Positions 10,201-55,659 are shown, numbered from the stretch's first letter. The stretch is 64,000 nucleotides of DNA from a virus (IMGVR_UViG_3300032046_000009); one strand, 5' to 3'. The notes: generated by a model not told the origin, from the letters alone. A program made the numbers and translations.

Positions 10201-10424
10201 GTAAATTCAACCGTTTCCCGTTCACTCTTCCAATACTCACATGAACAACCTAAACGATAAGAATGTCTAGGACTACCTAACGGAGTTTTCACGTCCCTTA
10301 AAAATCCTGTAGCTTTCCCGTTCGGTTCAGTTAAGTTAGGTTGTGAGCGCATCTCTGTGCATTTATAATAAATCTTGTCGAGATTCCTCTTGTTCGAACA
10401 GTTAAAGCAACCTTTCTCTTTCAA
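10197..10424 (-). CDS. small Cys protein (family C, GCFNC..GCSC)
   Basis: track 10197..10493 trimmed to TTG in JM 10421-10441; ends ETVEFT. Confidence 0.6.
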   Translation of the reverse strand: MKEKGCFNCSNKRNLDKIYYKCTEMRSQPNLTEPNGKATGFLRDVKTPLGSPRHSYRLGCSCEYWKSERETVEFT

Positions 10425-10660
10425 GTGAAATTGACCTTCTCTTTTGTTGTTACTTTGCGTTTTAATAGCCACTTTTTGAAAAAAGACTCCCAAGTATTAT
10501 CTCTTCTATCGTGAAAGAAGTCATGTCGTTCTTGTGATTTTTCCCACAAAATACCATGTGAGTCGCAAAGATAAAGTTTTTCCTCAGTCTGTATATCGTG
10601 ATAATTTGCATAACCTTTTTTACCGCAAATACAACACTTTTTACGGTTTGAATTTATCAT
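10421..10660 (-). CDS. small Zn-ribbon protein (family B)
   Basis: JM both ends; CCICG..CDSHGILW; ends EKVNFT. Confidence 0.7.
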   Translation of the reverse strand: MINSNRKKCCICGKKGYANYHDIQTEEKLYLCDSHGILWEKSQERHDFFHDRRDNTWESFFKKWLLKRKVTTKEKVNFT

Positions 10661-10836
10661 GTGAACTCGACCTGTTCTTTTTCGTTAGCCTTTTTATAAC
10701 AAACATTTAGGGTATTGCCTTTGAATCCTCTTTCTATTGAACATGGTTTGCAATAACACACGTTCGCGCTCAATTTATGCAAACTATCACATATATTATT
10801 GCAAGTGAATCTCTTTCCACAAACTTTACAAATCAT
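10657..10836 (-). CDS. 59-aa 8-Cys protein (family A; not in track)
   Basis: hand translation MICKVCGKRFTCNNIC..CYCKPC..EQVEFT; ATGA overlaps. Confidence 0.6.
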   Translation of the reverse strand: MICKVCGKRFTCNNICDSLHKLSANVCYCKPCSIERGFKGNTLNVCYKKANEKEQVEFT

Positions 10837-11051
10837 GTGAACGTCACCGTTTCCCGTCCCTTTAGACGGTTAATAATCTCTCGCGCCTTCATTTTGTCTA
10901 AGAGTTCCATTATCTCTGGGTTATCGGAAAGTAACTTGTCTATGCGTTCGCCTTGCTCTCTGAGCCTGTCTAGCTCGTACATCATACAATTAAAGCATAA
11001 TTTCTCGTTAATTCGTTGTTTGAACTCGTTTCCACATTTAGAACAAATCAT
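10833..11051 (-). CDS. small Zn-ribbon protein (family B)
   Basis: track 10833..11087 trimmed to ATG in JM; ends ETVTFT. Confidence 0.65.
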   Translation of the reverse strand: MICSKCGNEFKQRINEKLCFNCMMYELDRLREQGERIDKLLSDNPEIMELLDKMKAREIINRLKGRETVTFT

Positions 11052-11194
11052 GTGAAACAGACCTTTTCTCTTCCTTTGTTGTTGCATTGCTTACACATTC
11101 TTGAACCTATCTTCTTTGCATCCGCATAGTTTTTAACGGGAATATTGAGAGGTCTGCCACATTTTGAACACGGTATAACGAGAACGCCCGTCAT
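11048..11194 (-). CDS. 48-aa Zn-ribbon protein (not in track)
   Basis: CSKCG..CKQC; ends EKVCFT; ATGA overlaps. Confidence 0.55.
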   Translation of the reverse strand: MTGVLVIPCSKCGRPLNIPVKNYADAKKIGSRMCKQCNNKGREKVCFT

Positions 11195-11397
11195 GTGAAT
11201 AACACCTTCTCTTTTGGCTCTGGGGTTTTATATAGTTTGGTTCCTCGCGCTTTCATTTGAGAATTAAGTTCTTGACAACATTTATCAATTTCATCATAAT
11301 CAATACTGTTTTCGTGACATTTATCGTGCATCTTGCATTCCGTACACAAATCCTCATAATCGTACTCGATATAACCGTTATCGTCTATTGTTGTCAT
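11191..11397 (-). CDS. acidic Cys-containing small protein
   Basis: track trimmed to ATG in JM 11394; ends EKVLFT. Confidence 0.65.
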   Translation of the reverse strand: MTTIDDNGYIEYDYEDLCTECKMHDKCHENSIDYDEIDKCCQELNSQMKARGTKLYKTPEPKEKVLFT

Positions 11398-11588
11398 GTG
11401 AAACATACCTTCTCCTTTTGTTGTAATTCGATTAAATCTGTATCAGATACAACATACCTTTCGGTTTTATATCTTATATCAATGGTTCTGTTTGACATAA
11501 TTCTTGTAATTTTAACAAATGAACCTTTGGGGCAATGCCTAAAGCCAGCGTATTTTAGCTTTGCCTTATCGCCAACTTGAAACGTCAC
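11394..11588 (-). CDS. small beta-barrel (SH3/KOW-like) protein
   Basis: GTG after GGGTGAT; VGDKA motif; ends EKVCFT. Confidence 0.6.
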   Translation of the reverse strand: MTFQVGDKAKLKYAGFRHCPKGSFVKITRIMSNRTIDIRYKTERYVVSDTDLIELQQKEKVCFT

Positions 11589-13279: not shown

Positions 13280-13282
13280 TTT

Positions 13283-17210: not shown

Positions 17211-18938
17211 TCACTTCTGGGTTTCTACGTTTAGATACACGTTTAGGAATCTCTGAGGTAATTCGGATATTTGGTTTATCCGTGTTCGTGAGCACTTCAA
17301 GTTTTTCACTTTGCTTGCGAAGGTTTCTACATTCTCACAGTCACAGAAACCTATGAAGATACATTCAATTCCAGCTTTCGCATATTGGTCGATTAATTCC
17401 TCTGCTTTCGTTTCTTCATCACCACAGAAGCAGAAATCGGACGCAATGACCAGAATCTTTCGGCGTTCGCCTTTAATCGTATTGAACATTCTCAGGCTTG
17501 CCTCTAATCCAACGGAAACCTCAGTACCGCCAGCATTCACCGAAATAGCTCCAATTCTTGCCCGTGTGTTTTCGAAGGTTTCAAAGAAAGTCTTTACTTT
17601 CTGGGTATCTGCCCCAAAGCACCCAATACTGAACCCGTAATCGTCAACGTAATGTCCAAAGACCTCATTCAGTATAGTGGTTATCTTTTCAGCCTCTATT
17701 CGACTAACTGACCCTGAGAAATCGAACCAAAATTGAATTGCGACTTGTTCCTTCTCAAATTTTGTTGTTGTACGCAGATACACATTGCGAACGGTTCCCC
17801 TAAAGCTGTTTGTGTAGATGCGTGGAACAATTGGACTCATCATTTTTCCGCGTTTCTGGAAAATGTCCCGTTGAACTCTCGGTTTCATTTTCTTCTTTAG
17901 TTGATTCAATAGCTCGGAAATTTCAGGCTTGCATTCGTCCAGAAGTTTCGAATACGCCTCAAAATCTGGGTCTGGGGCTGGAATCTCTTCGCCTGTGCCT
18001 TCGCCAGCACCCGAACCTTTCTGCAAATCTTCTAGGTGTTTCTTCTTGTCCTCTTCTGCCTTTTCTTGCTCTTCCTCTTTTTCTAGTAATTGCCTAAGTC
18101 TGTCCGATATTTTGCCCTTTACGTTGCCCCCTCTTCTAGAAACGACATATTCCTTTGTCGTATAGTCAGCGTTCAAGTGTTTAGCTACCAATTCATAAAT
18201 CGTTTGGCAAGACCTTATTATGTCGAGTTTGACACGTTGATATTTCGTCCCCTCTAGCACTTTAAGGGCTGTTTCACAGTCCTTTCTAGCATCTGGGCTT
18301 AGTTTGTTCCATAACTCTGTGCATTTAGCCTCATATAGACCTTCATTGCACAAAATTGCAACCATGTAAACCCCGTCTTGTTGTCCAGCTTGAATTGTCA
18401 TGTTTGGAATTTCGTTTTCGCCTAAGTTTTCGCCCTTCGGTAAGATGGTTGACATGGCTATTTGTGGCTTTTCAATTGTGTTGTCTATCATGTCTTTTAG
18501 TATCAAATTCGCCAAAAGTAGCCTCTTGCCGACATCAAACCTGTATCTGAGAATTATGAAATGATTCACGCGCTTATCTTCAACTATGTTGCAAACTTCG
18601 TGAGCCAGCTTGTAAAATCCTCTCTGTCGTTTGATTTTTGTTGTCCAATTGTTGAAAAATTCCCAATTCGGTTTTGTTAGAATCAGATGACCGCACTCGT
18701 GAACCATGTCACCGTCTAGGATTTTTCGGAATAGACGGGGCGATGTTTTCACGAAATCGGGATAACTCTGTAAACTCAAAGAAATCTCAAAGTTTTCCAT
18801 ATTGAAAGCAGAAGTTGGTTGTTCTGGAATATACTTGATACGAATCCGTTTGTCCTTCGTAATTGCTATGGCAAGATTCCTCATCTCGTCAAGTATCTTA
18901 GAGAAGTTGTTCGTCTTTGCTTGTTTCTGCTTTGTCAT
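17211..18938 (-). CDS. VWA-domain protein with N-terminal HExxH (CbbO/NorD-like)
   Basis: HECGH; MIDAS DFSGS; VIASDF; acidic linker. Confidence 0.75.
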   Translation of the reverse strand: MTKQKQAKTNNFSKILDEMRNLAIAITKDKRIRIKYIPEQPTSAFNMENFEISLSLQSYPDFVKTSPRLFRKILDGDMVHECGHLILTKPNWEFFNNWTTKIKRQRGFYKLAHEVCNIVEDKRVNHFIILRYRFDVGKRLLLANLILKDMIDNTIEKPQIAMSTILPKGENLGENEIPNMTIQAGQQDGVYMVAILCNEGLYEAKCTELWNKLSPDARKDCETALKVLEGTKYQRVKLDIIRSCQTIYELVAKHLNADYTTKEYVVSRRGGNVKGKISDRLRQLLEKEEEQEKAEEDKKKHLEDLQKGSGAGEGTGEEIPAPDPDFEAYSKLLDECKPEISELLNQLKKKMKPRVQRDIFQKRGKMMSPIVPRIYTNSFRGTVRNVYLRTTTKFEKEQVAIQFWFDFSGSVSRIEAEKITTILNEVFGHYVDDYGFSIGCFGADTQKVKTFFETFENTRARIGAISVNAGGTEVSVGLEASLRMFNTIKGERRKILVIASDFCFCGDEETKAEELIDQYAKAGIECIFIGFCDCENVETFASKVKNLKCSRTRINQISELPQRFLNVYLNVETQK

Positions 18939-19400: not shown

Positions 19401-19544
19401 TTGAAATTAATCATTTGATTAAATAAGCTCAACAGTTCGCATCGTGCCTCGGCGTGAAGGGGCGTGAAGCAGTTAATCACCTGATTAATTAAATGCGCCT
19501 CGCACCGCGTCCCGTTTGGCAAAAGCGACCATTGTGAAAGCTGT

Positions 19545-24544: not shown

Positions 24545-24605
24545 TTTTATCAACAAGAGTATATTAGCATCGTCCTATATAAACCTTAGCCCAGAACTAC
24601 CATAC

Positions 24606-24893
24606 TCAAGTGAACTGAACTACTTCTTTTATAGCGTTCCTTATATCGCCTAGTGAAGTAATTTTAATATCCAAAATCATCTCATCTGCCATCTGTTGAA
24701 AGTGTTCTATCTCGCTTTCGTGTATCTCTTCAAATGAACATTTAGATATATGTTCTCCGTCATCGTAGTCATCTTCAAAAAACATAGAGCAAAGAGCACA
24801 TTCCTCTGAACCCCCACTTATACCCCCTCTAAATTTTACTGCAAGAGGGTCATTAGAATACGCAAGCCATCTTAAACTAACTTTACGTGTCAT
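24606..24893 (-). CDS. acidic small protein, last cassette of array G
   Basis: ends EVVQFT; its TTGA continues as TTGAGTATGG promoter element. Confidence 0.65.
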   Translation of the reverse strand: MTRKVSLRWLAYSNDPLAVKFRGGISGGSEECALCSMFFEDDYDDGEHISKCSFEEIHESEIEHFQQMADEMILDIKITSLGDIRNAIKEVVQFT

Positions 24894-25105
24894 GTGAACT
24901 CAACCCTCTCTTTTCTTTTTTCTTTCAAAATTAGCTTTTTGAAACATTCGGGACAAAGCCACCAAAACTTGTGAGCAAATTTTACTCTTCCCCCATTGCC
25001 TATTTCTCTAATACTACTTGCGAACTTCTCACAATTATAACAAGTAAGTTTCTCTCTATAATCTGGGGGGTCATAATCTTCTTCTAGCGGAATTTTTTCG
25101 GTCAA
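24890..25105 (-). CDS. small Zn-ribbon protein (family B-like)
   Basis: track trimmed to TTG in JM 25102; CYNC..CPEC. Confidence 0.65.
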   Translation of the reverse strand: MTEKIPLEEDYDPPDYREKLTCYNCEKFASSIREIGNGGRVKFAHKFWWLCPECFKKLILKEKRKERVEFT

Positions 25106-25266
25106 GTGAAACACACAACTTCCTTTTTAGGCTTTTTGCCACTAACATCGCACACAGAATACATGTCACACTTTTGGCATCTGTCTTGTAAATAGTTTGT
25201 GCATATCAAAACTTTCAGAGTAGTTACGCCCGTTTTTATGTTAGCTTGCAGTTGCATTCTTCTCAA
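25102..25266 (-). CDS. 54-aa Cys protein (not in track)
   Basis: TTG in JM; ends EVVCFT. Confidence 0.5.
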   Translation of the reverse strand: MRRMQLQANIKTGVTTLKVLICTNYLQDRCQKCDMYSVCDVSGKKPKKEVVCFT

Positions 25267-25391
25267 GTGAAGGACACCTTTTCTTTATTCTCCAAGATGT
25301 AAATTAATGCCTGAGCAATTATTTGCTGATTCTGTTGGACATTTCCTGTTGGAACAGATTTTAGATTTTTGATTATCTGTTCTCGATTCAA
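25263..25391 (-). CDS. 42-aa protein (not in track)
   Basis: TTG in JM; ends EKVSFT. Confidence 0.45.
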   Translation of the reverse strand: MNREQIIKNLKSVPTGNVQQNQQIIAQALIYILENKEKVSFT

Positions 25392-25537
25392 GTGAATTGC
25401 ACTTCCTCTTGTTCTTCTAAATATGGAATCCCATGAACTATTTTTTGAACCAGATAACGATAACCGTTTTTGTGAAAGACATCTCCAACTTTCAACTCTT
25501 CTCTGTTGGCTTGTCCTCTGGGTATTATTTTGTTCAA
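25388..25537 (-). CDS. 49-aa beta-barrel-like protein (not in track)
   Basis: VGDVF motif; ends EEVQFT. Confidence 0.5.
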   Translation of the reverse strand: MNKIIPRGQANREELKVGDVFHKNGYRYLVQKIVHGIPYLEEQEEVQFT

Positions 25538-25707
25538 GTGAACATCACTATTTCCCTTTCATTTGGTTGCTTGACTTTAAGACATTCTACAAGTCTTTCT
25601 TTCTTTTTCACCCAACAATCAGGACATAAACATTGGTTCATCTTTCTATTTTTCGCATCACATGATTGCTTGCAATTAAACTCTTTTTTACAATTTTTAC
25701 ACTTCAA
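25534..25707 (-). CDS. 57-aa 8-Cys protein (family A; not in track)
   Basis: MKCKNCKKEFNCKQSC..CLCPDC; ends EIVMFT. Confidence 0.6.
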   Translation of the reverse strand: MKCKNCKKEFNCKQSCDAKNRKMNQCLCPDCWVKKKERLVECLKVKQPNEREIVMFT

Positions 25708-25931
25708 GTAAACTTCACCCTTTCCTTTACTTTCTCTTTATCCCATTTTGCGAAAAGGTCTATTCCTTGTTTCCAAGTTATACAACTGCTTCCTGTCGTC
25801 TTAATGGATTTTTCGCTGTGTTTTCCTATATTCTCATATCTCGTTCCATATTGTTCTCCTTTCGTATCACAATATCCTTTTTTTCGGTTGTTAAACAAAC
25901 AGTTGAAACAGCCCTGTGTTGGTAAACTCAA
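25704..25931 (-). CDS. small Cys protein (family C)
   Basis: TTG start; GCFNC..GSSC; ends ERVKFT. Confidence 0.7.
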   Translation of the reverse strand: MSLPTQGCFNCLFNNRKKGYCDTKGEQYGTRYENIGKHSEKSIKTTGSSCITWKQGIDLFAKWDKEKVKERVKFT

Positions 25932-27736: not shown

Positions 27737-27799
27737 CTAATCTACCCTGAATTATTAATAGCATCGACCCTTATAAACCTTTGCCCTAAAACCCCATAC

Positions 27800-32811: not shown

Positions 32812-33756
32812 TCACTTGATTAATTGAAGTATCCCATCTTTACTTATTTGGAGTTTGTGGTATCGCATATCAGCCTTGCCTAGCCGACACTTGAGAACCC
32901 GTATGAAGTGTAGAAGTTCGCCTTGTTTTGCTTCGGTGTCGATTTTCATTTGAGCGTCCCAACTTGAGAGTTTCTTAAAGTTGATTTCAAACTCCACGTC
33001 TAGCAAATGGCTTAATGCAATGCCCCCTGCAAGTCCGTGTTGGTCAACTGATTCCTCATTTGCTTTCTGTGAGATAAAGATTCCTGTCACGCCTTTCTTC
33101 TGATTATAGCGGACAAATTCGCCTAAGTGGAATTTCAGTCCAGCACGATAATCATCTAGGAGAGTTAACGAATCGACAATTAGAAACTCAGCCTTTTCCT
33201 GTTCTACGAGTACGCGATAAGTTGAAACAAGTGTATTCCATTCTCTAAGTTCGCCGTGTGCAATAACGTCCAGCACAAAAAGATTCTGCTTTATGTTTTC
33301 CCAACTCAGTCCCAGAAAAGTTGCCATCTGTTTCATTCGACTCTGCAAATCAAATCTGTCGTTGTCAGCTTGGAAAATATCTTCGCTAGTTGTGAAAATA
33401 ACTTTGTTTCCGTCACTAGCTAATCTGAGCGCAACTTCCTGAGCGATTAAAGACTTGCCGACATCTGGGTTTCCGACCACACCTATCTGTGCAACTTTCG
33501 GAATGCCCCCCATAGGTTTATCGTCTTTGTCTAAGAAGAAATTGTCTAGGAAGGTTCTGCTTTTGAATAATGCTATTTGTGTCTTTATCTTTGCATCGTT
33601 CGGTCTAGTGGTCAGAAAGTCTTTAGTAAGTTGAATTGGTTTGTTAAAACTCTCTAGCGTTCCATCATTCTGAGCCTTAGCGATTATCTCTTCCATTCTC
33701 TCCATTACAGATTTAGCTCTTTCCTCTAGTTCTTTTTTACTTTGTTCTTCGCTCAT
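32812..33756 (-). CDS. RecA-superfamily ATPase (KaiC/RadB/DnaB-C-like)
   Basis: Walker A GNPDVGKS; Walker B FLIVDSLT. Confidence 0.7.
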   Translation of the reverse strand: MSEEQSKKELEERAKSVMERMEEIIAKAQNDGTLESFNKPIQLTKDFLTTRPNDAKIKTQIALFKSRTFLDNFFLDKDDKPMGGIPKVAQIGVVGNPDVGKSLIAQEVALRLASDGNKVIFTTSEDIFQADNDRFDLQSRMKQMATFLGLSWENIKQNLFVLDVIAHGELREWNTLVSTYRVLVEQEKAEFLIVDSLTLLDDYRAGLKFHLGEFVRYNQKKGVTGIFISQKANEESVDQHGLAGGIALSHLLDVEFEINFKKLSSWDAQMKIDTEAKQGELLHFIRVLKCRLGKADMRYHKLQISKDGILQLIK

Positions 33757-33758
33757 TT

Positions 33759-33968
33759 TTATTCCTCTGTCTTTACTATCGCTTGAAGGATAATTTCTCG
33801 AAGTTTTACAACAGCCAGCGCAGTTGCTTTCGGTCTTGAACGCTGTGCATCGCCAGCACTTATAGAAACGGTTACTCTATGTCCACAATCATATTCAATC
33901 GACAAGTAACCTAATTCTTTCAGCGCGTCTAGTATTCCCTGTGCTTGTGCTTTTTGTTTTTCAGACAT
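33759..33968 (-). CDS. hypothetical small protein
   Basis: track 33759..33977; ATG after AAGGTGATTGAA. Confidence 0.6.
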   Translation of the reverse strand: MSEKQKAQAQGILDALKELGYLSIEYDCGHRVTVSISAGDAQRSRPKATALAVVKLREIILQAIVKTEE

Positions 33969-33973
33969 TTCAA

Positions 33974-34165
33974 TCACCTTAAATTAGTGAATTTAAAGAA
34001 TCTCCAATGAATCTTCTTGTCCTCAAAGTCTATCTGCAAATAGATAAAATGTTCTATCTTTGGGTTTGGAACTATGCCTATCTGGAAATAGAAAGCTAGA
34101 TTAGAAAGCATCGCGTAGAATCTTTCGCCTAAATGGAAAGTACCTACGAATTTTATTTCGGACAT
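33974..34165 (-). CDS. hypothetical small protein
   Basis: track 33974..34174; ATG after GTTGATTGAA. Confidence 0.55.
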   Translation of the reverse strand: MSEIKFVGTFHLGERFYAMLSNLAFYFQIGIVPNPKIEHFIYLQIDFEDKKIHWRFFKFTNLR

Positions 34166-34175
34166 TTCAATCAAC

Positions 34176-34409
34176 TCAAGTGAATTGAACCTTTTCTTTT
34201 CCCGTCAACTTCTTTAACTCTTTTCTTAAACCTTCGTTTTCCTCTTTCAAGTCTAAGTATCGTAATTCGAAATGGTGAAGATAATTCGTAAGTGTTTCCA
34301 TTCTGTCGCGGTAAGTACGAATCGTTTCGCTCTCTAATCTCATTGCGTCCTCTAAAATTTTCGCTGTTGGACAACTATCGCATTTATCTTTCTTTCCCCA
34401 TCCGAACAT
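34176..34409 (-). CDS. coiled-coil small protein
   Basis: 77 aa; ends EKVQFT. Confidence 0.65.
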   Translation of the reverse strand: MFGWGKKDKCDSCPTAKILEDAMRLESETIRTYRDRMETLTNYLHHFELRYLDLKEENEGLRKELKKLTGKEKVQFT

Positions 34410-34410
34410 T

Positions 34411-34728
34411 TCAATCGTCCTCTATTTCTTTGATTTCGATTTTGCCTTTTTGTATTTTGTTCTTTACCGAGTAAACTGTGACTAGAACCCAATATGCAAC
34501 TGTTGGAAGAGCGAAGAAAAATGAAACCCAATAATTTCCCAAACCCTGTCCGATAAAGACAATATACGCTCCCTGAACGCAAGCCATCGCCGACAAAGTT
34601 AGCAATGCCCCTAGCCAATCGTAGCCTTTCAAGATGTTTCGGTTCTTCAATACTGCCCTAATCAGCGCAGATGTGCCAAGCAGAAAGAGAATGTTAGAAA
34701 TGTTGAAAAGCATTGAGGGGTCTATCAT
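34411..34728 (-). CDS. three-TM small membrane protein
   Basis: 105 aa, three hydrophobic segments; ATGA overlap. Confidence 0.6.
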   Translation of the reverse strand: MIDPSMLFNISNILFLLGTSALIRAVLKNRNILKGYDWLGALLTLSAMACVQGAYIVFIGQGLGNYWVSFFFALPTVAYWVLVTVYSVKNKIQKGKIEIKEIEDD

Positions 34729-34994
34729 TCTCTTTTCCCCTTTGCCTTTCCGCTTAGATATTCTTCTTTTGAAAAAATAAGAGCCAAACTAACATCGTGA
34801 ACTAATTCAATCGTTTTCACTACTCTTCCGTTGTTTTCAAGATATTTTATCTTCTCGCGTATCGCTTTTCGCAACTCTTTAGGAGTTTTCCCTTCTGCAT
34901 AAGCAGTATAATGATACTCTGCTCCCCGTTGCTTCTCTTCTGGAACTATGAAACCTATTTTTGCATTCCATTTGTCGTGTTTTTCTACTTGCAT
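34725..34994 (-). CDS. hypothetical protein
   Basis: track 34725..35054 trimmed to ATG 2 nt after upstream TAG. Confidence 0.55.
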   Translation of the reverse strand: MQVEKHDKWNAKIGFIVPEEKQRGAEYHYTAYAEGKTPKELRKAIREKIKYLENNGRVVKTIELVHDVSLALIFSKEEYLSGKAKGKRE

Positions 34995-34995
34995 T

Positions 34996-35154
34996 CTAAT
35001 CTTCTCTACGTTTTCGTTTGTTCTTTTTTCCACCCAAATTCGGGTTTGGAACAAGCATCGTGACTAACGTATCGTAGCCATGTCTTTGTTGAATTTGTGT
35101 TATCCAAATCTTCTCGGACTTGGTATCTATCTTTTTCGTATCTCTGTCAACCAT
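34996..35154 (-). CDS. 52-aa basic protein (not in track)
   Basis: AGTGATTGAA-ATG leader; TATA 35191-35198. Confidence 0.45.
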   Translation of the reverse strand: MVDRDTKKIDTKSEKIWITQIQQRHGYDTLVTMLVPNPNLGGKKNKRKRRED

Positions 35155-35223
35155 TTCAATCACTTTACTTCTATACTATCTCAATGTGACTTATAAACTT
35201 TGCGTTAGAACGTCCATGCTCGA

Positions 35224-35421
35224 TTAATCGTGCATCACGGGGATTCCTTTTGCTCTAAGTTTTGCTTTACGTCTTGCAACCTCTTCAAAATCGTCCGCGC
35301 CAGCGTCATAACCCTCTGAAAATCCAGCTTCATGTGCTTCCCATTCTTTTTCTTCGGACGTTTGTTTTATTTTCTTTCCTTCTAAAAAAAGGTGAAGTTT
35401 TTTGGTTTTTATCGTGTTCAT
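35224..35421 (-). CDS. acidic small protein
   Basis: 65 aa; ATGA overlap. Confidence 0.6.
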   Translation of the reverse strand: MNTIKTKKLHLFLEGKKIKQTSEEKEWEAHEAGFSEGYDAGADDFEEVARRKAKLRAKGIPVMHD

Positions 35422-35825
35422 CGAGATAGCAATGCTCCTATCAAAGCTCCTATGAACACCGTGACTACGAGTGTTGAAACGGCAAAAAGAATTATTCCGA
35501 TAATCAGGCAGTAAATCAATGGGGCATAGATTAGCAAGTTTGTGAAGGTTGCTGTTTGTGCAGTTGTAAAGTTTCCCAGACTAATCAGTAATTGATTTAG
35601 TTGTATCGCCCAGACCCAATAGAGATATATGCCAACGTAGGGAATAAGCGAAGCCAGCATTATGAGTTCAGTCAGGAAAACCATAACGAAGCCGACTATG
35701 AATCCTTGTATGCTTGACGTAATTAGAAAGCCGACAGCACCGACTATGAGTGCGATAATCAGCGAAGTTATCCACGAAGTTCCATAGGTTTTTACTACGA
35801 CTTGAGTTGATTTCTTGTCGTTCAT
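35418..35825 (-). CDS. multi-pass membrane protein
   Basis: track 35418..35834; ATG after GTGATTGAA; about 4 TM. Confidence 0.65.
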   Translation of the reverse strand: MNDKKSTQVVVKTYGTSWITSLIIALIVGAVGFLITSSIQGFIVGFVMVFLTELIMLASLIPYVGIYLYWVWAIQLNQLLISLGNFTTAQTATFTNLLIYAPLIYCLIIGIILFAVSTLVVTVFIGALIGALLSR

Positions 35826-35889
35826 TTCAATCACTACACACTAAGATAGCAATGTCCCTTATAAACTTTCCCTAAGAATTGCCATGCTC

Positions 35890-36300
35890 AGTTTCGAAGT
35901 TAGTTCGAAAAAGTATATGAATTAAATTTAAGATTTAATGGGACTGTTATATAATTTTTCATGGTCTTTTCCCATAGGTTATAAACTATTCCATAAATCC
36001 TAAATATAATCCTTGATAGATTTCGGAGTTAGTTCGAAACATCAAAAAGTCCATACTTTTACCATAGACTATTCGAACAATTTTCGAAAAGAAAATATAA
36101 TTATTTAGGATTTTATGGATTAAAATAACTATCCGATTGCCCAGAGAAGCCATAAGAATGCCCCGTTTGACAAAAGGACATAGATATAAAAAATATTAAA
36201 ATTATATTTTAGAATTTTAATCAGGTGATTAACCGTGGTCGTATATTGCATGGACAATATAGGATAATTAATCAACTGATTAAAAATTCGAAAAATCGGG
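35890..36300. other. AT-rich ORF-free region with TTCGAA repeats and an inverted repeat
   Basis: tttcgaagttagttcgaaa / tttcggagttagttcgaaac; IR ccataaatcctaaatataat vs ataattatttaggattttatgg. Confidence 0.5.
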
Positions 36301-36639: not shown

Positions 36640-36786
36640 TCAAGTAAAGGTTACTTTCTCCACGTCCATTTTGTGCATACAGTCATAACAAAGCCACTTT
36701 CTTCCTTTAAGAACTACCACAATCTGTTTTCTTCCGCATCCGTCACACGTTAATCCTGTATAAGCCATAGTGATTTTGGCATTCAT
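36640..36786 (-). CDS. 48-aa Zn-ribbon protein (not in track), last cassette of array M
   Basis: CDGCG..CYDC; ends EKVTFT; TTGAGCATGG follows. Confidence 0.55.
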   Translation of the reverse strand: MNAKITMAYTGLTCDGCGRKQIVVVLKGRKWLCYDCMHKMDVEKVTFT

Positions 36787-37076
36787 GTAAATGCAACCTT
36801 CTCTTTTCTGGTTTCTATGTTTTTCAAAAACTCTTCAAAATATTTGTTCCAAATTTCGCTGAATTCTTTCCACGCTTTTTCACCCTCATCGTTATCATTT
36901 CCAAATTTTGCACTATTGTTATAATTTTTACGAGCATCATTTAATCTTTGTATTCTACTTCCTTTGTCAAGAAAGTGTGTCCATTTTGAAAAACAATCTT
37001 TACATATAGTATATGGGGCAATAGAATGGCATGTCTTTTCCTCATTACAAACAGAACAAATTTTCAGGTCTGTCAA
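36783..37076 (-). CDS. small Zn-ribbon protein (family B)
   Basis: TTG start; CSVC..CKDCFSKW; ends EKVAFT. Confidence 0.7.
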   Translation of the reverse strand: MTDLKICSVCNEEKTCHSIAPYTICKDCFSKWTHFLDKGSRIQRLNDARKNYNNSAKFGNDNDEGEKAWKEFSEIWNKYFEEFLKNIETRKEKVAFT

Positions 37077-37213
37077 GTAAACTCAACTCTTTCTTTCTGT
37101 TGAATATAAAATCCGTCAGCTATACAGAAATATTGTTTCTTCTCATCGTCCCATTCTTTGCCCCAACAATCCATTTGACAACCTTTGCACTTATGTTCTG
37201 GAAGTTCGGTCAT
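37073..37213 (-). CDS. 46-aa Cys protein (not in track)
   Basis: CKGCQMDC; ends ERVEFT. Confidence 0.55.
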   Translation of the reverse strand: MTELPEHKCKGCQMDCWGKEWDDEKKQYFCIADGFYIQQKERVEFT

Positions 37214-37368
37214 GTAAACTGTACCTTCTCCTTTGTATCCTTTATTGGTTTTCCCATGACAATCATTTTATCTCCTCTAATAGCAACCAAGAACCCGTCT
37301 TTCTCCATTATTTCTATGGCTTTCTGAATGTCAGCGTAGTCTATACTCATAGTGATTCTTTTGCTCAA
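37210..37368 (-). CDS. 52-aa protein (not in track)
   Basis: TTG in JM 37365; ends EKVQFT. Confidence 0.5.
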   Translation of the reverse strand: MSKRITMSIDYADIQKAIEIMEKDGFLVAIRGDKMIVMGKPIKDTKEKVQFT

Positions 37369-37688
37369 GTAAAACTCACAACCTCTGGAAGTGTATCAAA
37401 TGGTTCGCTAGTTCTGCCACAAATTTTTACCCACTCATTTTCGTTGTGCATGTGAAAATGTTCTCTAATTGGTTTGCCGTTTGTTGAGCCGAAATGATAC
37501 CATCCATCATTTTCAAGTTTCCACGAATTTAGTTGGTAAACTTGCCCGTCTGAATCTTCTTGAAAAATACTGCAACTACATTTGAAAGTGTCTCCAACTT
37601 TGGCTTTCAGTTTTTCGTCTTGAGTTACGCTTTGGTTGTTCGGTTGATGAAACATTTTTTGTTTGCAGAAGGGACAATAGTAAGTCAA
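37365..37688 (-). CDS. Zn-ribbon protein
   Basis: TTG start; CPFC..CSC; ends EVVSFT. Confidence 0.7.
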   Translation of the reverse strand: MTYYCPFCKQKMFHQPNNQSVTQDEKLKAKVGDTFKCSCSIFQEDSDGQVYQLNSWKLENDGWYHFGSTNGKPIREHFHMHNENEWVKICGRTSEPFDTLPEVVSFT

Positions 37689-37921
37689 GTGAACTCGACC
37701 TTTTCCTTATCAACATACTCTATTCTGAAAACTTTACCACATTTCTTGCAAGTTACTTTAAGAGGATAAGGGTCGTGTCCTTCAACAACTTTATATCCCA
37801 TTAAGAATTTATGTCCGTTCGGAACCCATTTTATGTCTTTTTGCTCAAAAGCAAATCCCCATTCATTCCATCCGTTTCCACATTTAGGACATTTTACGTT
37901 TTGTCTATTTTTCGGTTTCAA
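37685..37921 (-). CDS. small Zn-ribbon protein
   Basis: TTG start; CPKCG..CKKCG; ends EKVEFT. Confidence 0.7.
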   Translation of the reverse strand: MKPKNRQNVKCPKCGNGWNEWGFAFEQKDIKWVPNGHKFLMGYKVVEGHDPYPLKVTCKKCGKVFRIEYVDKEKVEFT

Positions 37922-38121
37922 GTAAATTGCACCCTTATTCTATCATCCACTTTAGGTTTCAAGTCGAAAATCTCTCGCTGTATATTCTTATATCTGAGCC
38001 ATTTATTTTCTTGTTTAAAATGTTCTTCACAAAGAAAAATTATTTCTACTCTGTTCACCTTTTTGTAAACGTGAACTTCTTTTACAGCTTCTTTATTGCA
38101 CATCGGAATTTGGCATTTCAA
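37918..38121 (-). CDS. small Cys protein
   Basis: TTG start; ends IRVQFT. Confidence 0.65.
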   Translation of the reverse strand: MKCQIPMCNKEAVKEVHVYKKVNRVEIIFLCEEHFKQENKWLRYKNIQREIFDLKPKVDDRIRVQFT

Positions 38122-38393
38122 GTGAATTGCACCTTCACAAAATCGTCCGCGAACTCTTTGGCTAATTCGTTTGCTTCACCTATTCCCTTTGAAAATATTA
38201 TAGACGCGCCCCATCTTTTCTTTTCAATTTTGATATTTGGGTCTTTCTCTTTAAGAAATTTCAACCACTTCCAAAAACAACCACAATCAGCACCAATATA
38301 AAATACAGGATTTAGTTTAAGAATGTTGGTTGTCCCCGTTTCCCTAAACATCGTGGCTTTTCCGTTTTCCTTTCCGCATTTAGCACAAATCAT
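38118..38393 (-). CDS. small Zn-ribbon protein (family B)
   Basis: track trimmed to ATG in JM 38390; CAKCG..CGCFWKW. Confidence 0.65.
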   Translation of the reverse strand: MICAKCGKENGKATMFRETGTTNILKLNPVFYIGADCGCFWKWLKFLKEKDPNIKIEKKRWGASIIFSKGIGEANELAKEFADDFVKVQFT

Positions 38394-38578
38394 GTGAACA
38401 GCACCTTTTCTTTGACAAACTCGTAATTTTGGCAACAACAGCCAGCACGATAAGGTATATTATTTCTACCTTTCTGAATTTCTTTTGGGTCTATTCCTTT
38501 TTCACTATCTATGGAACCACGACAATTTTTGTATTTCTTACAGTTGAAGCAACCACGATTAATTGATAAACCACTCAA
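38390..38578 (-). CDS. small Cys protein (family C)
   Basis: track trimmed to TTG in JM 38575; GCFNC..GCCC. Confidence 0.65.
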   Translation of the reverse strand: MSGLSINRGCFNCKKYKNCRGSIDSEKGIDPKEIQKGRNNIPYRAGCCCQNYEFVKEKVLFT

Positions 38579-38763
38579 GTAAAGTTCACCTTTTCCTTTA
38601 CCTCTATGCAAGTATGTCTAGGTTGTGGTTCTCCACTATTACTAACTGCTGTCCAGAGGCAATGTTCACAGCAGAAGTTTTGTTCACCAATATCGTGAGC
38701 GTCCCCGTATTGTTCATAAGACCGTCCGCAAACGTCACACTTAACAATTTGCCAAGTCGTCAA
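38575..38763 (-). CDS. small Zn-ribbon protein
   Basis: TTG start; CDVCG..CCEHC; ends EKVNFT. Confidence 0.65.
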   Translation of the reverse strand: MTTWQIVKCDVCGRSYEQYGDAHDIGEQNFCCEHCLWTAVSNSGEPQPRHTCIEVKEKVNFT

Positions 38764-40265: not shown

Positions 40266-40481
40266 CTATGAGTATCGCTGGTTTGCATGGACTTCTCCAT
40301 GCCGAAGGTCATAAAAGGAACTATTTTAATCAGTTGATTAAACATTCGGTTTCCATGACCAGCAGGGTTGGGAGCTTTTTTGGCACTTCGAAAAATTTCG
40401 AAAGCCATTCTCTCCATACAAACATCCCCAACCAGCAAAAAAGTGATGGTCATTTGCGAGACCTGTAAAAATTATCTGCCT

Positions 40482-40614: not shown

Positions 40615-41088
40615 TCAGATGGCTTTTTTCCACCCCCTCGGCTCCATGCCCCAAACTTTTAATCAGTTGATTAATAACTACCGAAAGGTTTATATGGTGC
40701 AACTCGTATTATATAAGGAAGAGTTGAACTTTCAATGACACAGAAAGTTACACTAACCGTAACCTCGAAAGTGACCCAGACGGAAACACGGAAAAGGGTA
40801 ACGCAGAAAAACCTTTAGGAAAAAACCATCGGTCACACTTTTTGAAACCACATACCCACACATAGGCGGCGCGCAGGCGAAAATTTGATTTTGGTCGGCG
40901 AACTTTGTGATTTCTGTTATGATTGTTATTTTGGTATTATTTTTATTTCCTATTTCCTGAGCATTTCGATTTAGATTTACTAAGGATTCGAGAAAAGAAA
41001 ATAACTGAAAACGTCTTTTTTTCAGGGAGTTTTGAACGTCTAGGGGAGCTAGGGGTAGGGGACTATCCCAGAGAAAGTTGGTATATGC

Positions 41089-41788: not shown

Positions 41789-41964
41789 GTGAATTGCACT
41801 ACCTCTCTCGGTATTATCACTTTTAAATCCCCACGTTTTATTTCCCTTTCAATTGGAATTTTGATACTTTTACCACCATGAGTGCAAAAAATTTCTCCAT
41901 GTTTGTTAGTCCGTAATATGCATCCTTTGGTAAGTGTGCAACAAGTACATTTATATTCAGTCAA
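41785..41964 (-). CDS. 59-aa Cys-rich protein (not in track)
   Basis: TTG in JM 41961; ends EVVQFT. Confidence 0.55.
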   Translation of the reverse strand: MTEYKCTCCTLTKGCILRTNKHGEIFCTHGGKSIKIPIEREIKRGDLKVIIPREVVQFT

Positions 41965-42251
41965 GTAAACTGCACCTTTATTCTCTTTAATTCTTTCGGC
42001 ACATCTTTAGGCGTTCCCCACATATCCCTTTCATCATAAAATCTCCATTTGTCATTAAGAAGATGTTCCCATTTATTATCATAGAAAATCTTTGGAGTCC
42101 CATCTTCATTTTTGAATGCCTCGCTAATAATATTGTGCCCGCACTCACAAGCATAGAAACTCGCGCCTAAATCTCCAAACCAACCTATGCCATTTCGTTT
42201 TCCAGTAAATATCAGTTCACTTTTACAGAACGGACAAATCCAAACAGTCAT
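41961..42251 (-). CDS. Zn-ribbon protein
   Basis: CPFC..CECG; ends IKVQFT. Confidence 0.7.
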   Translation of the reverse strand: MTVWICPFCKSELIFTGKRNGIGWFGDLGASFYACECGHNIISEAFKNEDGTPKIFYDNKWEHLLNDKWRFYDERDMWGTPKDVPKELKRIKVQFT

Positions 42252-42499
42252 GTGAACTGCACTACCTCTGGGTCCTCTGGTACTATAAAAACTTTGTTGC
42301 TATGCTCAAAATATGTCCCATCTGTTTTTCTATTCCAAATACACGTCAATGATTCTTTGTCGAAAAGATGTACTCTTCGAACAAACTGAGCATGACAATC
42401 TTTACATTCCATACATACTTCTTTCTTTTCTATATTTCGTGAATGGCACATAGGGCATTTAGTGAAGTTGAATTTTAAACCAAAAGTATTGAGAGCTAT
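42248..42499 (-). CDS. Lar-like Zn-ribbon protein with ATA in the JM start slot
   Basis: homology to 44551..44823 (KCPMC.SRN) extends upstream of track ATG to JM 42496, which reads ACATAG. Confidence 0.5.
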   Translation of the reverse strand: MALNTFGLKFNFTKCPMCHSRNIEKKEVCMECKDCHAQFVRRVHLFDKESLTCIWNRKTDGTYFEHSNKVFIVPEDPEVVQFT

Positions 42500-42726
42500 G
42501 TGAATTCCACCTTCTCCTTTGCATCAATTCCAAAATCCATTCTACTTCTACAACGCTCTTTTCCAGAGACAATTTCTCTGCCACCCTTCTCTCTCTCAAA
42601 TTCTTGAATGCAAGCCCCACAATAGCAAGCAGTTTCTTGTTTAGCTTTAAGTTCTATTCCACATTCTCCGTGACACATAAAACTGCAATGGCAATAACAA
42701 CACTTTTTATGATACCATCGTTTCAT
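42496..42726 (-). CDS. 8-Cys small protein (family A)
   Basis: CCYCHCSFMCHGEC..CYCGAC; ends EKVEFT + TAG. Confidence 0.7.
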   Translation of the reverse strand: MKRWYHKKCCYCHCSFMCHGECGIELKAKQETACYCGACIQEFEREKGGREIVSGKERCRSRMDFGIDAKEKVEFT

Positions 42727-42971
42727 GTAAACTGCACCTTTACTGGTCTATTTATTCTCTTTGTTCTTACTTTTAGTCCTAAGTAATTTGAAAAATACAT
42801 ACCGAACTCATAAGCATGTTCTTCACAAAATTCATCGTGGCATATATGTGTTATTTTTGTAGCAAATTCACGAGTGCTCCCTTCGCTTCGCACCATTTTG
42901 TATGACAAAATAATCTCTGATTCTTTTCTACAATCAACCGCGAGACAACAGGTTAAAACACGACCATTCAA
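42723..42971 (-). CDS. small protein (family E), paralog of 44306..44554
   Basis: track trimmed to TTG in JM 42968; AYEFGMYFSNYLGLKV. Confidence 0.6.
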   Translation of the reverse strand: MNGRVLTCCLAVDCRKESEIILSYKMVRSEGSTREFATKITHICHDEFCEEHAYEFGMYFSNYLGLKVRTKRINRPVKVQFT

Positions 42972-43096
42972 GTAAACTGCACCTTTTCCCTTCTGTGTTT
43001 GTTCTGTCTCCAAATTGCAACAACAAGCATCCAATCTATTACTCTAGCTTTGTATTGAATTTCTGTATCCCAATTATCAAATAACTTTGACTTCAC
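42968..43096 (-). CDS. 42-aa protein (not in track)
   Basis: GTG in JM variant ACGTGA; ends EKVQFT. Confidence 0.4.
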   Translation of the reverse strand: MKSKLFDNWDTEIQYKARVIDWMLVVAIWRQNKHRREKVQFT

Positions 43097-52983: not shown

Positions 52984-53012
52984 TTCTTTCTACTCTCCAT
53001 ATATCACTATCA

Positions 53013-53297: not shown

Positions 53298-53410
53298 TTT
53301 TTCTTCTCCGTCCATTCTCTGCAACTTCCCCACCATCTATGGGTGCATTCTTCATTTCCACAGGTTGCACAACAATTATACGGTCTAAAGTTAACGGGAT
53401 ACCTTCTCAT
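53294..53410 (-). CDS. 38-aa Cys protein (not in track)
   Basis: ATGA overlaps both ends; CCATCG..C. Confidence 0.45.
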   Translation of the reverse strand: MRRYPVNFRPYNCCATCGNEECTHRWWGSCREWTEKKK

Positions 53411-54525
53411 TTCTTTCTTCGCTCCATGTAATCTTCATAGAATGTGAACAAGTTTCCACGACTTGAGTAGAGATGTTTTCGGCATTCTTCTGAAACGGCT
53501 TTAGCAATAAGTGGCATATCATGTTTTGGTGTACCATCTAATCCAAAGTCCGCTTCGACATGGCTTATTGCACCCATGATTTCGCTCTCTGGAATTTGTG
53601 GTAACTTTGGCGGTCCCTCTCGTATCCGTTCGACTATTGGCTTTGGAATATCTAGTTTCACTTTTGCTTGAATATACTCTCCTTCTTTATCGAATGTTTT
53701 CAGTACCATACCTTCATCTTTGCCGTAATCCTTTTCGGTGTTACAGTATTCCAGAACGTGATTAGAAAACTTTATCAAATCCTTTATTGTTCTGTGTCTT
53801 GTTGATGCGTAAAGCTGGACAACTGGAATTTTAGAGTGATAACAATATTGATATACCTGTGTATAAGGAAGGAAATTCTTGAGTGCGGTATCGTAGATGT
53901 CAACAACGAACAGGATAGGCTTTTCATACCTTCTTATCCCTGTGACGCTTGCACCTTTGGCACATTCTTCTACAATTACTCTGAATGTTGGATTAGCTTC
54001 GATTAGTGCTACGATTTTCTCATAATCCTCTACACAATCTTTTCTTACTCTGGCTTGAATATCCTTAGCGGCTATCTCTTGATTATGACTTGATATGACA
54101 AACTCGAACTGTTTCCGCGTATGTGGTTTCTTTCTCTTCCATATGGTAACATTTTCACCATCTTCTTTTATTGTCCATTGAAGTCTAAGTCCGAGCAATG
54201 ACCTTCTAAGTCTGGCATTAGTTGTCAAAATAGGAATATGAGGGTAGTGTTCCCACGGAAGTTCTTTTTGGCGTTTCTTTGTTCCAGTAAAGAATGGAGA
54301 TATACATATGGCTGGTTTATCGAAATCAACCTTAACAGATTCCTTAACCAACTTTCTCAGTTTTGCATTATTACATCTAGTATCAATCAATTCTTTAGCT
54401 TTAGGGTCCCATTCGAATCCTTCTGGAATCTTTCGTGGTTTTCTCATCTTCTTTCCTAATTTCTCCAACCTTTTGAATACTTTGGAAGGTTTCCAGATTT
54501 CGTCTGGATTATCTGCGCCTGTCAT
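53407..54525 (-). CDS. ATP-dependent RNA/DNA ligase (nucleotidyltransferase superfamily)
   Basis: motif I KEDGEN, motif IV EGMVLK, motif V AKVK. Confidence 0.7.
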   Translation of the reverse strand: MTGADNPDEIWKPSKVFKRLEKLGKKMRKPRKIPEGFEWDPKAKELIDTRCNNAKLRKLVKESVKVDFDKPAICISPFFTGTKKRQKELPWEHYPHIPILTTNARLRRSLLGLRLQWTIKEDGENVTIWKRKKPHTRKQFEFVISSHNQEIAAKDIQARVRKDCVEDYEKIVALIEANPTFRVIVEECAKGASVTGIRRYEKPILFVVDIYDTALKNFLPYTQVYQYCYHSKIPVVQLYASTRHRTIKDLIKFSNHVLEYCNTEKDYGKDEGMVLKTFDKEGEYIQAKVKLDIPKPIVERIREGPPKLPQIPESEIMGAISHVEADFGLDGTPKHDMPLIAKAVSEECRKHLYSSRGNLFTFYEDYMERRKK

Positions 54526-55238
54526 TACTTCTCAGCCTTTTGTGCTTTCTCAAGTTTCTTTTTCAGTTCGGCTATGTGAGCGTCTTTCTTCTTTACTTCT
54601 TCTATGATTTTTGCAGTTTCGGGGTCAATCAATGGTATCATTTCTTCTTTTGTGGGTATCATAGTTTCTGGTTTCTTAAATTGTTCGGCTAGTTTTGCTT
54701 GGCGTTCAGCTTCCATTGCGGCACGTTCTTTCTTCTGTAGTTCATATGCTTCCGCTTTTCTAGTTTCCTGATAGTCTGTCTGGGTTTTTCTGAAAATTTC
54801 ATATTTGTAAATATCAGCGTTACTTATCGAATCTGGAACCACCTTTATGTCATCAGGCACACCCATTGCAATTTTTCGTTCACGATTCTTGGTAGCTTGT
54901 TCGCTTCTAATTTGCCAATTACGACATTTCTGGCACATTGATTTCTCTGGAATCATAACATTGTCAACCTCTGTGTTCGGTTCCTTTATTAGTCTTTTTC
55001 CTTTTTCTTCGAGACTTCGAGTTGAACCCTCAATTTTTGTGCCCATACTATTCCATTCGGTTGGAACAGTTTTACGAAATACCTTCTTACATTTAGGGCA
55101 ACCAAAAATATTCCCATCAATAGACTTCGCCAATTCTGTTTTGTCGTCAGGGCAAGTATGTTTCTTGAAGACGTAAACCTTCAACATTGTTACGAAATAA
55201 TCTTGTCCACATGATGAACATTTCTGTTTTTGTTTCAT
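54525..55238 (-). CDS. Zn-ribbon protein with coiled-coil tail
   Basis: CSSCG, CPKC, CQKC; TATA 55274-55281. Confidence 0.7.
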   Translation of the reverse strand: MKQKQKCSSCGQDYFVTMLKVYVFKKHTCPDDKTELAKSIDGNIFGCPKCKKVFRKTVPTEWNSMGTKIEGSTRSLEEKGKRLIKEPNTEVDNVMIPEKSMCQKCRNWQIRSEQATKNRERKIAMGVPDDIKVVPDSISNADIYKYEIFRKTQTDYQETRKAEAYELQKKERAAMEAERQAKLAEQFKKPETMIPTKEEMIPLIDPETAKIIEEVKKKDAHIAELKKKLEKAQKAEK

Positions 55239-55303
55239 ATTTCAATCACTATAAAGGTATTACGCACTCGTCCTATTTAAACTTTGCGTCAGAAACTCCA
55301 TGC

Positions 55304-55483
55304 TCAACTTCTAATCAATGAGAGGGTCAACCATTCATTGACGAGAACCATAATGTCATCTGGGTATTTTGGAAACTCTGGAATATCTAAAAATAGAAAC
55401 AACTCGATAAAGAAGTAAGGCTTTCGGTCTGTCCAATAAATTCTTTGAACCATCGAAGGACGTATTCTAAGTTCTTTTATCAA
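55304..55483 (-). CDS. 59-aa protein (not in track)
   Basis: TTG in JM variant TTCGATTGA; stop in TTGAGCATGG. Confidence 0.5.
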   Translation of the reverse strand: MIKELRIRPSMVQRIYWTDRKPYFFIELFLFLDIPEFPKYPDDIMVLVNEWLTLSLIRS

Positions 55484-55659
55484 TCGAACTTCACCTTTTC
55501 AGACTCTACACGAACTTTATAACAGTCATCAAATGCATGGGGATTCTCAATATACGAACGAGTTTTCTTCCAACATTTTCTACAGAAACATTCTTTGGTT
55601 CTACAGTCTTTAAACTTGGCATCACATTCGAATTCGATACCGCAATTAAGGCATTTCAA
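55480..55659 (-). CDS. 59-aa 8-Cys protein (family A; not in track)
   Basis: MKCLNCGIEFEC..CFCRKC; ends EKVKFD. Confidence 0.6.
   Translation of the reverse strand: MKCLNCGIEFECDAKFKDCRTKECFCRKCWKKTRSYIENPHAFDDCYKVRVESEKVKFD

Follow-up and report, generated by a model that had tools for sequence, protein, structure and literature searches.

Stereotyped stop/start junctions with a high TTG share and one conserved ATA slot in an uncultured and probably large phage

The 64,000-nt stretch IMGVR_UViG_3300032046_000009 (the window, with positions counted from its first letter) derives from an uncultured phage, probably a large one, and carries chains of small genes joined by 4-nt stop/start overlaps, each lying within one stereotyped sequence. 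At the 71 junctions where the start slot is used, the slot codon is ATG in 39 cases, TTG in 29, GTG in 2 and ATA in 1, which puts the functional TTG share at 41%. We favour, with reasonable confidence, the view that these are overlap junctions led by a Shine-Dalgarno (SD) sequence, at which ATG and TTG would be nearly interchangeable, restart would be coupled to the upstream gene's termination, and the single ATA would work as a near-cognate start. An unusually high TTG share had been suspected in a first-pass annotation of this DNA; it is real, specific to the junctions, and far above the ordinary values for E. coli and for bacterial overlaps surveyed elsewhere. The chains occupy one broad region:

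9746-55948, minus strand: six chains of small genes with 4-nt stop/start overlaps in GAR-AAG-GTN-NNN-TTY-ACN-TGA.

All substantial open reading frames (ORFs) of the window are encoded by the minus strand. When this strand was searched for GTN NNN TTY NNN plus a stop codon, 90 sites were returned, of which 83 terminate ORFs of 35 codons or more, compared with 13 sites and 8 such ORFs on the plus strand. The C-terminal peptide is E-x-V-x-F-T (second residue K, R, V or other), encoded as GTN NNN TTY ACN TGA; the last residue is Thr in 74 of the 83 motif ends, Asp in 6, Ser in 2 and Ala in 1, and the stop is TGA in 75. The wobble base of the last codon is at the same time the first base of the next start: ACA TGA yields ATG, ACT TGA yields TTG, and ACG TGA yields GTG. 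A junction was counted as used when an ORF of 33 codons or more runs downstream from its slot. Seventy of the 71 used junctions read ATGA, TTGA or GTGA at a gap of -4, the remaining one being ATAG; the small genes at the counted junctions span 33-126 codons, and the longest run holds about 21 of them, from 45906 down to 41268 on the minus strand. Proteins encoded in the chains are diverse, with many cysteine-rich zinc ribbons of several families, and some unrelated proteins, among them a membrane-type sequence; with the tail removed, only a minority match each other by BLASTP.

The first-pass annotation had estimated by eye about 35 TTG and 39 ATG junctions. As totals these figures stand (34 TTGA and 39 ATGA), but five of the TTGA ends (36643, 34179, 30171, 27803 and 24609) open frames that close after 2-22 codons and are followed by an intergenic region; they are chain ends, not starts. 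The strings CACTTGA and CACATGA, under which the junctions had been listed, occur literally only 24 and 22 times, about half of the junctions reading TTTAC and not TTCAC. Two junctions had been given as ACGTGA, which holds for the first of the following and not for the second:

43093-43096, minus strand: GTGA junction (ACG TGA), one of only two GTG slots.
11585-11588, minus strand: GTGA junction, reading TCG TGA with a Ser codon.

Eleven motif ends are unused:

24606-24609, minus strand: chain end ACT TGA, with the peptide motif kept and the slot unused.
27803, 30171, 34179, 36643, 9749, 14766, 16809, 20032, 38995 and 47415, minus strand: similar chain ends.

The peptide motif is present at used junctions and chain ends alike, while the codons that write it differ between the two. 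The motif Val is GTG at 43 of 71 used junctions and at 2 of 11 chain ends (Fisher p=0.019; 55% overall against a background of 14%), and the codon before Val ends in G at 53 of 71 and 4 of 11, respectively (p=0.029). The motif Lys is AAG in 40 of 44 cases (background 22%), and the peptide's wobble positions vary. AAGGTG sits within the 3' end of the preceding gene, 8 nt ahead of the start, and free-standing genes carry the same AAGGTG or TAAGGT 7-9 nt before ATG (e.g. ctataAAGGTGtggaaaaATG). Because the SD codons are enriched only at used junctions, AAGGTG-N8-start is selected only where a gene follows. There are thus two layers of constraint at the junction, a conserved peptide and a codon choice that favours the SD. 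Since the peptide is kept where no gene follows and the SD bias is lost, the peptide itself appears to be selected, and this shared C-terminus of about 80 diverse small proteins may serve as a tag, a docking strand or through a nascent-chain effect. In the one AlphaFold2 (AF2) model made, the C-terminal tail is of low confidence and probably disordered.

The base that opens the slot departs from ordinary codon usage. Internal Thr codons of the same genes are ACA 32%, ACT 41%, ACC 11% and ACG 16%; the 66 Thr-coded used slots hold 40 ACA, 25 ACT, 1 ACG and no ACC (chi-square p=2e-7). C and G together are depleted (1/66 against 27% internally, p=3e-8), G is depleted relative to T (p=0.0036), and ACA is over-represented against ACT relative to internal usage (p=0.0055). 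At the slot, then, CTG is excluded, GTG unexpectedly avoided, ATG mildly preferred and TTG tolerated. The unused ends have ACT in six cases, ACA in one, ACC in one and Asp codons in the rest, so that the lone ACC stands at an unused end and 6 of the 8 Thr-coded unused ends are ACT. Clustering of ATG and TTG slots along the chains was considered and rejected (31 runs against 34.3 expected, p=0.24), and TTG-slot and ATG-slot genes do not differ in length.

The sequences of the TTG-slot genes and of their relatives show the TTG slot as the real position of the N-terminal codon. Examples of TTG slots are:

25102-25931, minus strand: six consecutive TTG-slot genes (slots 25931, 25707, 25537, 25391, 25266 and 25105), four without an in-frame ATG.
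36783-38763, minus strand: TTG-slot run 38763, 38578, 38121, 37921, 37688, 37368 and 37076, broken by ATG slots at 38393 and 37213.
41961-41964, minus strand: TTGA slot of a 59-codon ORF without any ATG, beginning L-T-E-Y-K-C-T-C-C.
42968-42971, minus strand: TTGA slot whose ortholog in the related locus L022 has ATGA at the same position (LNGRVLTCC against MNGRVLTCC).

TTG and ATG paralogs are in register at the N-terminus; the products of slots 25707 and 10836, for instance, match from residue 3 in both. Ortholog pairs with at least 50% identity that align from residue 1 comprise six switches between ATG and TTG, seven cases with the same codon and one switch between GTG and ATG, with residue 2 onward conserved (e.g. 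LNNPDCEKCHC and MNNPDCEKCHC). As such pairs align across the swap, the slot is the N-terminal codon in both states, and the choice between A and T flips about as readily as a synonymous site. Many TTG-slot proteins begin L-K-C-x-x-C, with zinc-knuckle cysteines two residues past the TTG, so that a later start would delete the first zinc knuckle.

Start usage in E. coli is 83% AUG, 14% GUG and 3% UUG (bioRxiv 10.1101/063800), and in a bacterial survey of unidirectional overlaps ATGA accounts for 24% and GTGA for 3.8%, with TTGA mentioned only among rare combinations (bioRxiv 10.64898/2026.09.10.750558). Away from the motif junctions, a longest-ORF rule, which inflates the TTG and GTG counts, gives 72 ATG, 24 TTG and 24 GTG starts in the window. 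Metagenome gene calls for locus L007, which equals window 31961-52251, give 38 ATG, 1 TTG and 1 GTG outside the motif slots, in a set that includes slot genes cut by the caller to an internal ATG. Since GTG equals TTG off the junctions and stands at 2 against 29 at them, the TTG excess is junction-specific and not genome-wide; the excess, and the reversal of the usual order in which GTG exceeds TTG, belong to the junction.

These counts bear directly on the best-surviving alternative, which we regard as possible but not probable: host preference only. Each gene would have an independent SD site, the host, for instance one akin to low-GC Gram-positives, would read UUG almost like AUG, A or T in the slot would follow Thr codon usage, and reinitiation would play no part. 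TTG starts are commoner than GTG starts in low-GC Firmicutes. Moreover, the junction SD is identical in sequence and spacing to that of free-standing genes, there is no inhibitory RNA structure for upstream translation to open, and the chains continue normally past the ATA gene. Against this reading, non-junction genes start mostly on ATG and use GTG as often as TTG; the conserved ATA would also be left unexplained.

The high TTG share is a property of the clade and not of the window alone. Related metagenomic phages were collected through a protein resembling VWA proteins, and the DNA of their loci was fetched. In the five related loci where such junctions number more than three, the TTG share is 27-60%: 12 ATG, 9 TTG and 3 GTG in L017; 11, 8 and 0 in L022; 11, 9 and 0 in L025; 4, 6 and 0 in L020, a more distant relative in which the motif has changed to E-K-V-[L/M]-L-T; and 9, 4 and 2 in L050. 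Pooling the window, these five loci and the three junctions of the 807-nt fragment L027 gives 88 ATG, 65 TTG and 8 GTG, or 40% TTG. Motif junctions are few in L018 and absent from L021, where the VWA protein shows 42% identity.

Among these relatives, single-gene cassettes are gained and lost exactly between two junction motifs. The one-gene cassette 44823-44987 (minus strand), 164 nt between two motifs, is absent from L008, L009, L010, L011, L015 and L016, which are otherwise near-identical, and the cassette 42496-42726 (minus strand) is absent from L050. Gene order is shuffled as well: window genes separated by 21 kb have orthologs in L025 with 1 kb between them. Recombination may use the junction as an in-frame adaptor. 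L025 (11142) and L026 (8184) hold what may be another non-canonical slot, where an ACG TAA junction puts GTA in the slot of a 90-codon motif-ending ORF with no canonical start until codon 86; this ORF has upstream in-frame starts, and a longer overlap is possible.

The ATA slot belongs to the following set of features:

42496-42499, minus strand: ATAG slot, its ATA overlapping the TAG stop of the upstream gene 42496-42726.
42248-42499, minus strand: Lar-like zinc-ribbon ORF read from the ATA slot, 83 codons.
44551-44823, minus strand: paralog of the ATA-slot gene with ATG in the slot (Pfam Lar_restr_allev, 31.8 bits against a cutoff of 28.6).

It is the only one of the 71 used slots without ATG, GTG or TTG. 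Minus-strand 42501-42496 reads ACATAG, as first noticed, and the upstream gene ends in K-V-E-F-T-TAG; the string is identical in 10 fetched loci of the phage, from at least 8 different samples, and is thus not a sequencing error. The slot frame has no upstream in-frame ATG, GTG or TTG in the window. Homology to the paralog, described earlier as running right up to the ATA, comes within four residues of it (BLASTP residues 5-76 against 2-83 of 44551-44823, 43% identity, E=1.5e-17). The first canonical in-frame start is the Met at 42451 and, because this lies inside the K-C-P-M-C knuckle, a start there would remove the first zinc-ligand Cys. The full 83-aa product matches Lar_restr_allev (PF14354) at 14.4 bits over residues 14-56, below the 28.6 cutoff, and the 67-aa product from the internal Met has no Pfam match. 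Both the Lar match and the confident part of the AF2 model (predicted local distance difference test, pLDDT, about 80; residues 11-40) take in the C-P-M-C knuckle, residues 15-18. No junction of the set has a stronger SD than the one ahead of the ATA (AAAGGAGAAGGTGG; -10.5 against a mean of -7.3 kcal/mol), and the C-terminal motif and next junction downstream of the gene are intact.

Orthologs were compared, as suggested in the first-pass annotation. A homolog search found four (L025/L026, L027, L022 and L050). Those in L025, L026 and L027 read ACATGA, and their M-S-L-N-T-F aligns to I-A-L-N-T-F; those in L022 (80% amino acid identity, synonymous divergence about 0.6-0.7) and L050 both read ACATAG. 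The three ATAG genomes (window, L022 and L050) have three different upstream genes and, the cassette 42496-42726 being absent from L050, the ATAG travels with the downstream gene. The peptide I-A-L-N-T-[FY]-x-L-K-[FL]-N-F-x-K-C and an intact frame are found in all three, so that the coding sequence is intact directly after the slot in diverged relatives. Between the window and L022, the proportions of nonsynonymous (pN) and synonymous (pS) differences are 0.16 and 0.61 over codons 2-14 (pN/pS about 0.26) and 0.06 and 0.68 over codons 15-60. Codons 2-14, ahead of the internal Met, thus remain under purifying selection after substantial divergence. The earlier suggestion of a freshly inactivated start is not upheld, the ATA slot being no fresh lesion, and we infer a conserved weak start instead. 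Other apparent ATA slots in relatives were discarded as ordinary TAATG (-1) overlaps or as having an ATG three codons upstream.

That the ATA is a dead start, with the gene a decaying pseudogene or yielding only the 67-aa product from Met 42451, seems unlikely to us. Its case is that in E. coli initiation on ATA reaches no more than about 0.1-3% of the AUG level (10.1101/063800), that metagenome gene calls report the gene as the 67-aa fragment (cluster P0078), and that its Lar score falls under the cutoff. A dead start sits poorly, however, with an ACATAG retained by three genomes despite about 60% divergence at synonymous sites, with the intact frame, conserved peptide and low pN/pS, with an internal-Met product that loses both the first knuckle Cys and any Pfam match, and with the intact motif and junction that follow.

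The favoured reading can be put as a mechanism. The junction would be a compact translation signal within the last six codons of the upstream gene, GAR-AAG-GTG supplying the SD AAGGTG 8 nt before a start that overlaps the upstream TGA by 4 nt. The upstream protein would have to end in Thr, so that the Thr wobble base would be the first base of the start; with A or T accepted there, and G rarely, such genes would start on ATG or TTG. Lineages would drift between the two at about the rate of synonymous change, with ATG mildly favoured and TTG still working. A ribosome terminating on the TGA would already be placed on the SD and start, adding termination-reinitiation to SD-driven de novo initiation, and this positioning may be why TTG is tolerated and ATA viable. 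The ATA slot would work alike with a near-cognate codon, giving a low but selected level of the Lar-like protein, aided by the strongest SD. What the sequences show is the anatomy of the junction, its two layers of constraint, the TTG as N-terminal codon position, and the conservation of the ATA slot with the codons behind it. We infer both the coupling and actual initiation at the ATA, and a mixture of reinitiation and de novo initiation seems the most economical account.

Several observations weigh against this account. A good SD stands at every junction, and de novo initiation at each gene independently could account for everything except perhaps the ATA. SD strength does not differ significantly between TTG and ATG junctions (-8.07 against -7.31 kcal/mol, p=0.12), nor do folding energy and SD/start accessibility differ between junctions and gene interiors. 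GTG is rarer than the Thr codon predicts (p=0.0036 as above), which the model does not explain. At the ATA gene, the pN/pS support covers 13 codons only. In L022 an ATG stands in frame 15 codons ahead of the slot and might be the start used there, in L050 the frame of the slot stays open on the upstream side for 20 codons or more, and the window offers an alternative near-cognate start in the ATT that precedes the ATA by two codons. The ATA gene is moreover the 17th in a chain of about 21, with four genes after it, and since a strict relay would starve these four, we argue that de novo initiation contributes. Coupling by RNA unfolding was set aside as without support, the junctions being no more structured than gene interiors.

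A bolder version of coupling, which we judge rather improbable, would make the chains a ribosome relay: a terminating ribosome held by the SD, and possibly by the nascent E-K-V-x-F-T, would restart on AUG, UUG or AUA with relaxed proofreading, and the junction would double as a recombination adaptor. If so, one loading event could serve up to about 20 cistrons, and cassettes could be swapped between phages with expression unbroken.

It is very unlikely that the TTG slots are annotation illusions, with the real starts at internal or upstream ATGs as standard callers predict. The public gene calls for L007 accept only two TTG slots and leave the other TTG-slot genes shortened to internal ATGs or uncalled, ATG starts being placed inside several TTG-slot ORFs; in 8 of these ORFs overall an ATG follows in frame within 12 codons, and the slot at 41552 has one 8 codons upstream. 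Against this, 21 of the 29 TTG-slot ORFs have no ATG within the first 12 codons and 12 have no in-frame ATG anywhere, and the gene calls leave uncalled stretches where TTG ORFs lie. Upstream in-frame ATGs occur at 1 of 29 TTG slots (41552 alone) against 7 of 39 ATG slots, and were rejected as an explanation. Conservation among orthologs and paralogs begins at residue 1-2, and the Thr wobble at used slots, never C and once G, would be unexplained were the slot no start. N-termini at internal ATGs, the contrary outcome raised in the first-pass annotation, therefore do not suit most TTG genes, given the 12 without ATG and the orthologs aligning from residue 1.

Recoding at the ATA junction, in which peptidyl-tRNA-Thr would slip from ACA to AUA (+2) at a slow TAG and fuse the upstream and Lar-like proteins, is scarcely credible: ACA-TAG is exact in all three ATA genomes and tRNA-Thr(UGU) could conceivably re-pair with AUA at positions 1 and 3, but +2 shifts are very rare, -1 or +2 frameshifting was judged unlikely because there is neither a slippery sequence nor a downstream stimulatory structure, the three upstream partners differ and so give no conserved fusion product, and the ATG-slot orthologs show that the protein works on its own.

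Other repeated signals accompany the chains. GGTTTATAWAG occurs at 24 sites with at most one mismatch, against 2.8 expected (e.g. 24575-24585, 27769-27779, 45938-45948, 56656-56666 and 60830-60840, minus strand); where a chain ends, it is found in the gap immediately after the last gene, with a TGAGTATGG-like sequence ahead of it, and many free-standing genes have ...TATAG near the start. It is probably a phage promoter. The 16-bp palindrome TTAATCA-NN-TGATTAA has 25 sites against 0.09 expected, often paired between gene chains, and probably serves a dimeric DNA-binding protein as operator or else forms a terminator stem:

9267-9282, 9332-9347, 19407-19488, 36217-36283, 40326-40341 and 40659-40674: examples of palindrome sites.

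The roughly 0.3 kb that separates the copies at 40326 and 40659 is missing from locus L008. The minus strand shows two more stereotyped start contexts: ...(A)AGGTGATTGAAATG before about six genes at about 33700-35900, and TTAAGGACGTG before or overlapping starts at about 350-4500, the first 4.5 kb also differing in GC skew.

The window has a G+C content of 35-42%. Its larger ORFs encode an SPFH protein, a KaiC-like ATPase, an RNA ligase, a GT2 glycosyltransferase and a trypsin-like peptidase, and a MoxR-type AAA_5 ATPase ORF adjoins that of a VWA-related protein. The window copy of the VWA-like protein (17211-18938) has 575 aa and no LAGLIDADG/intein domains; some of its homologs (P0005, P0020 and P0059) are about 900 aa long and carry the LAGLIDADG/intein Pfam domains PF14528 and PF14890, which suggests that inteins have entered the gene in part of the clade. 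When 6 kb of the window were compared by megablast with 50,697 phage records, no match was returned; tblastn of the SPFH protein against deposited phage genomes found relatives of at most 32% identity, and a scan of IMG/VR with a degenerate junction 21-mer returned 0 matches. Exact protein matches were found on metagenome contigs, for example ENA ERZ27247683 k141_72449 (86 kb) and several JGI and Logan samples. A tRNA search of the window found none, and an Rfam scan no family. As to the host, GTDB genomes scanned with the VWA homolog protein P0011 gave no match, and a search by DNA motif gave 21 single matches and one double in unrelated taxa, which is uninformative.

Natural series in which start-codon choice can be followed across overlapping genes have seldom been studied. 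In this clade a genome supplies about 70 junctions, near-identical save for the start codon (A, T, rarely G, never C, and once ATA), and relatives record evolutionary swaps between ATG and TTG. The series is a ready-made design for asking whether termination-reinitiation relaxes start-codon discrimination in bacteria, and its ACATAG slot, kept by three genomes, provides a strong candidate for a natural gene of bacterial type that starts on AUA. As gene calls truncate or miss most TTG-slot genes, the clade's small phage proteins are under-represented or N-terminally wrong in public sets.

Part of this is already known: -4 overlaps that contain an internal SD occur widely, and TTG belongs to the canonical starts. 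What is unusual is a single stereotyped, hexapeptide-embedded junction at about 70 genes, 40% TTG with almost no GTG across the clade, and a conserved AUA slot. In the searchable literature we found no description of such a junction set, and nothing relevant on the peptide motif or on phage ATA starts.

The -4-nt stop/start overlap is the commonest type of prokaryotic overlap, and termination-reinitiation is established for it (Huber et al. 2019, PMC6728339; review PMC12548453). Like the coupled NTGA overlaps described there, the present junctions join co-directional genes through a 4-nt overlap of start and TGA, with the SD in the upstream 3' end. They differ in that about 70 consecutive junctions all repeat one stereotyped sequence of about 20 nt, which encodes a set C-terminal hexapeptide, in a TTGA share of 41% for a combination that the bacterial survey mentions only among rare ones, and in GTG being rarer than TTG, with one junction holding ATA.

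For AUN near-cognate starts, the precedents are the AUU codons of infC and pcnB in E. coli (10.1101/063800). As there, the ATA is an AUN codon behind a good SD, conserved across relatives, which would imply deliberately low or regulated expression; here, however, the codon is AUA, the gene is a phage gene, and the putative start lies inside an A-TAG overlap. With respect to the restriction alleviation protein Lar (PF14354), the paralog 44551-44823 passes the family cutoff and the ATA-slot gene shares its zinc-ribbon core (43% identity); the latter falls below the cutoff, both carry an extra C-terminal E-V-V-x-F-T tail, and the function is putative.

A further parallel is offered by the termination upstream ribosome-binding sites (TURBS) of some eukaryotic viruses, whose restart codon tolerates non-AUG substitutions. 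In caliciviruses and influenza B (PMC6728339), as at the present junctions, a stop/start overlap is combined with an upstream rRNA-complementary tether within the upstream ORF. TURBS act on the eukaryotic 40S subunit and 18S rRNA through an element of about 70 nt, whereas a plain bacterial SD of 5-6 nt would serve here, so that the likeness is one of mechanism and not of homology.

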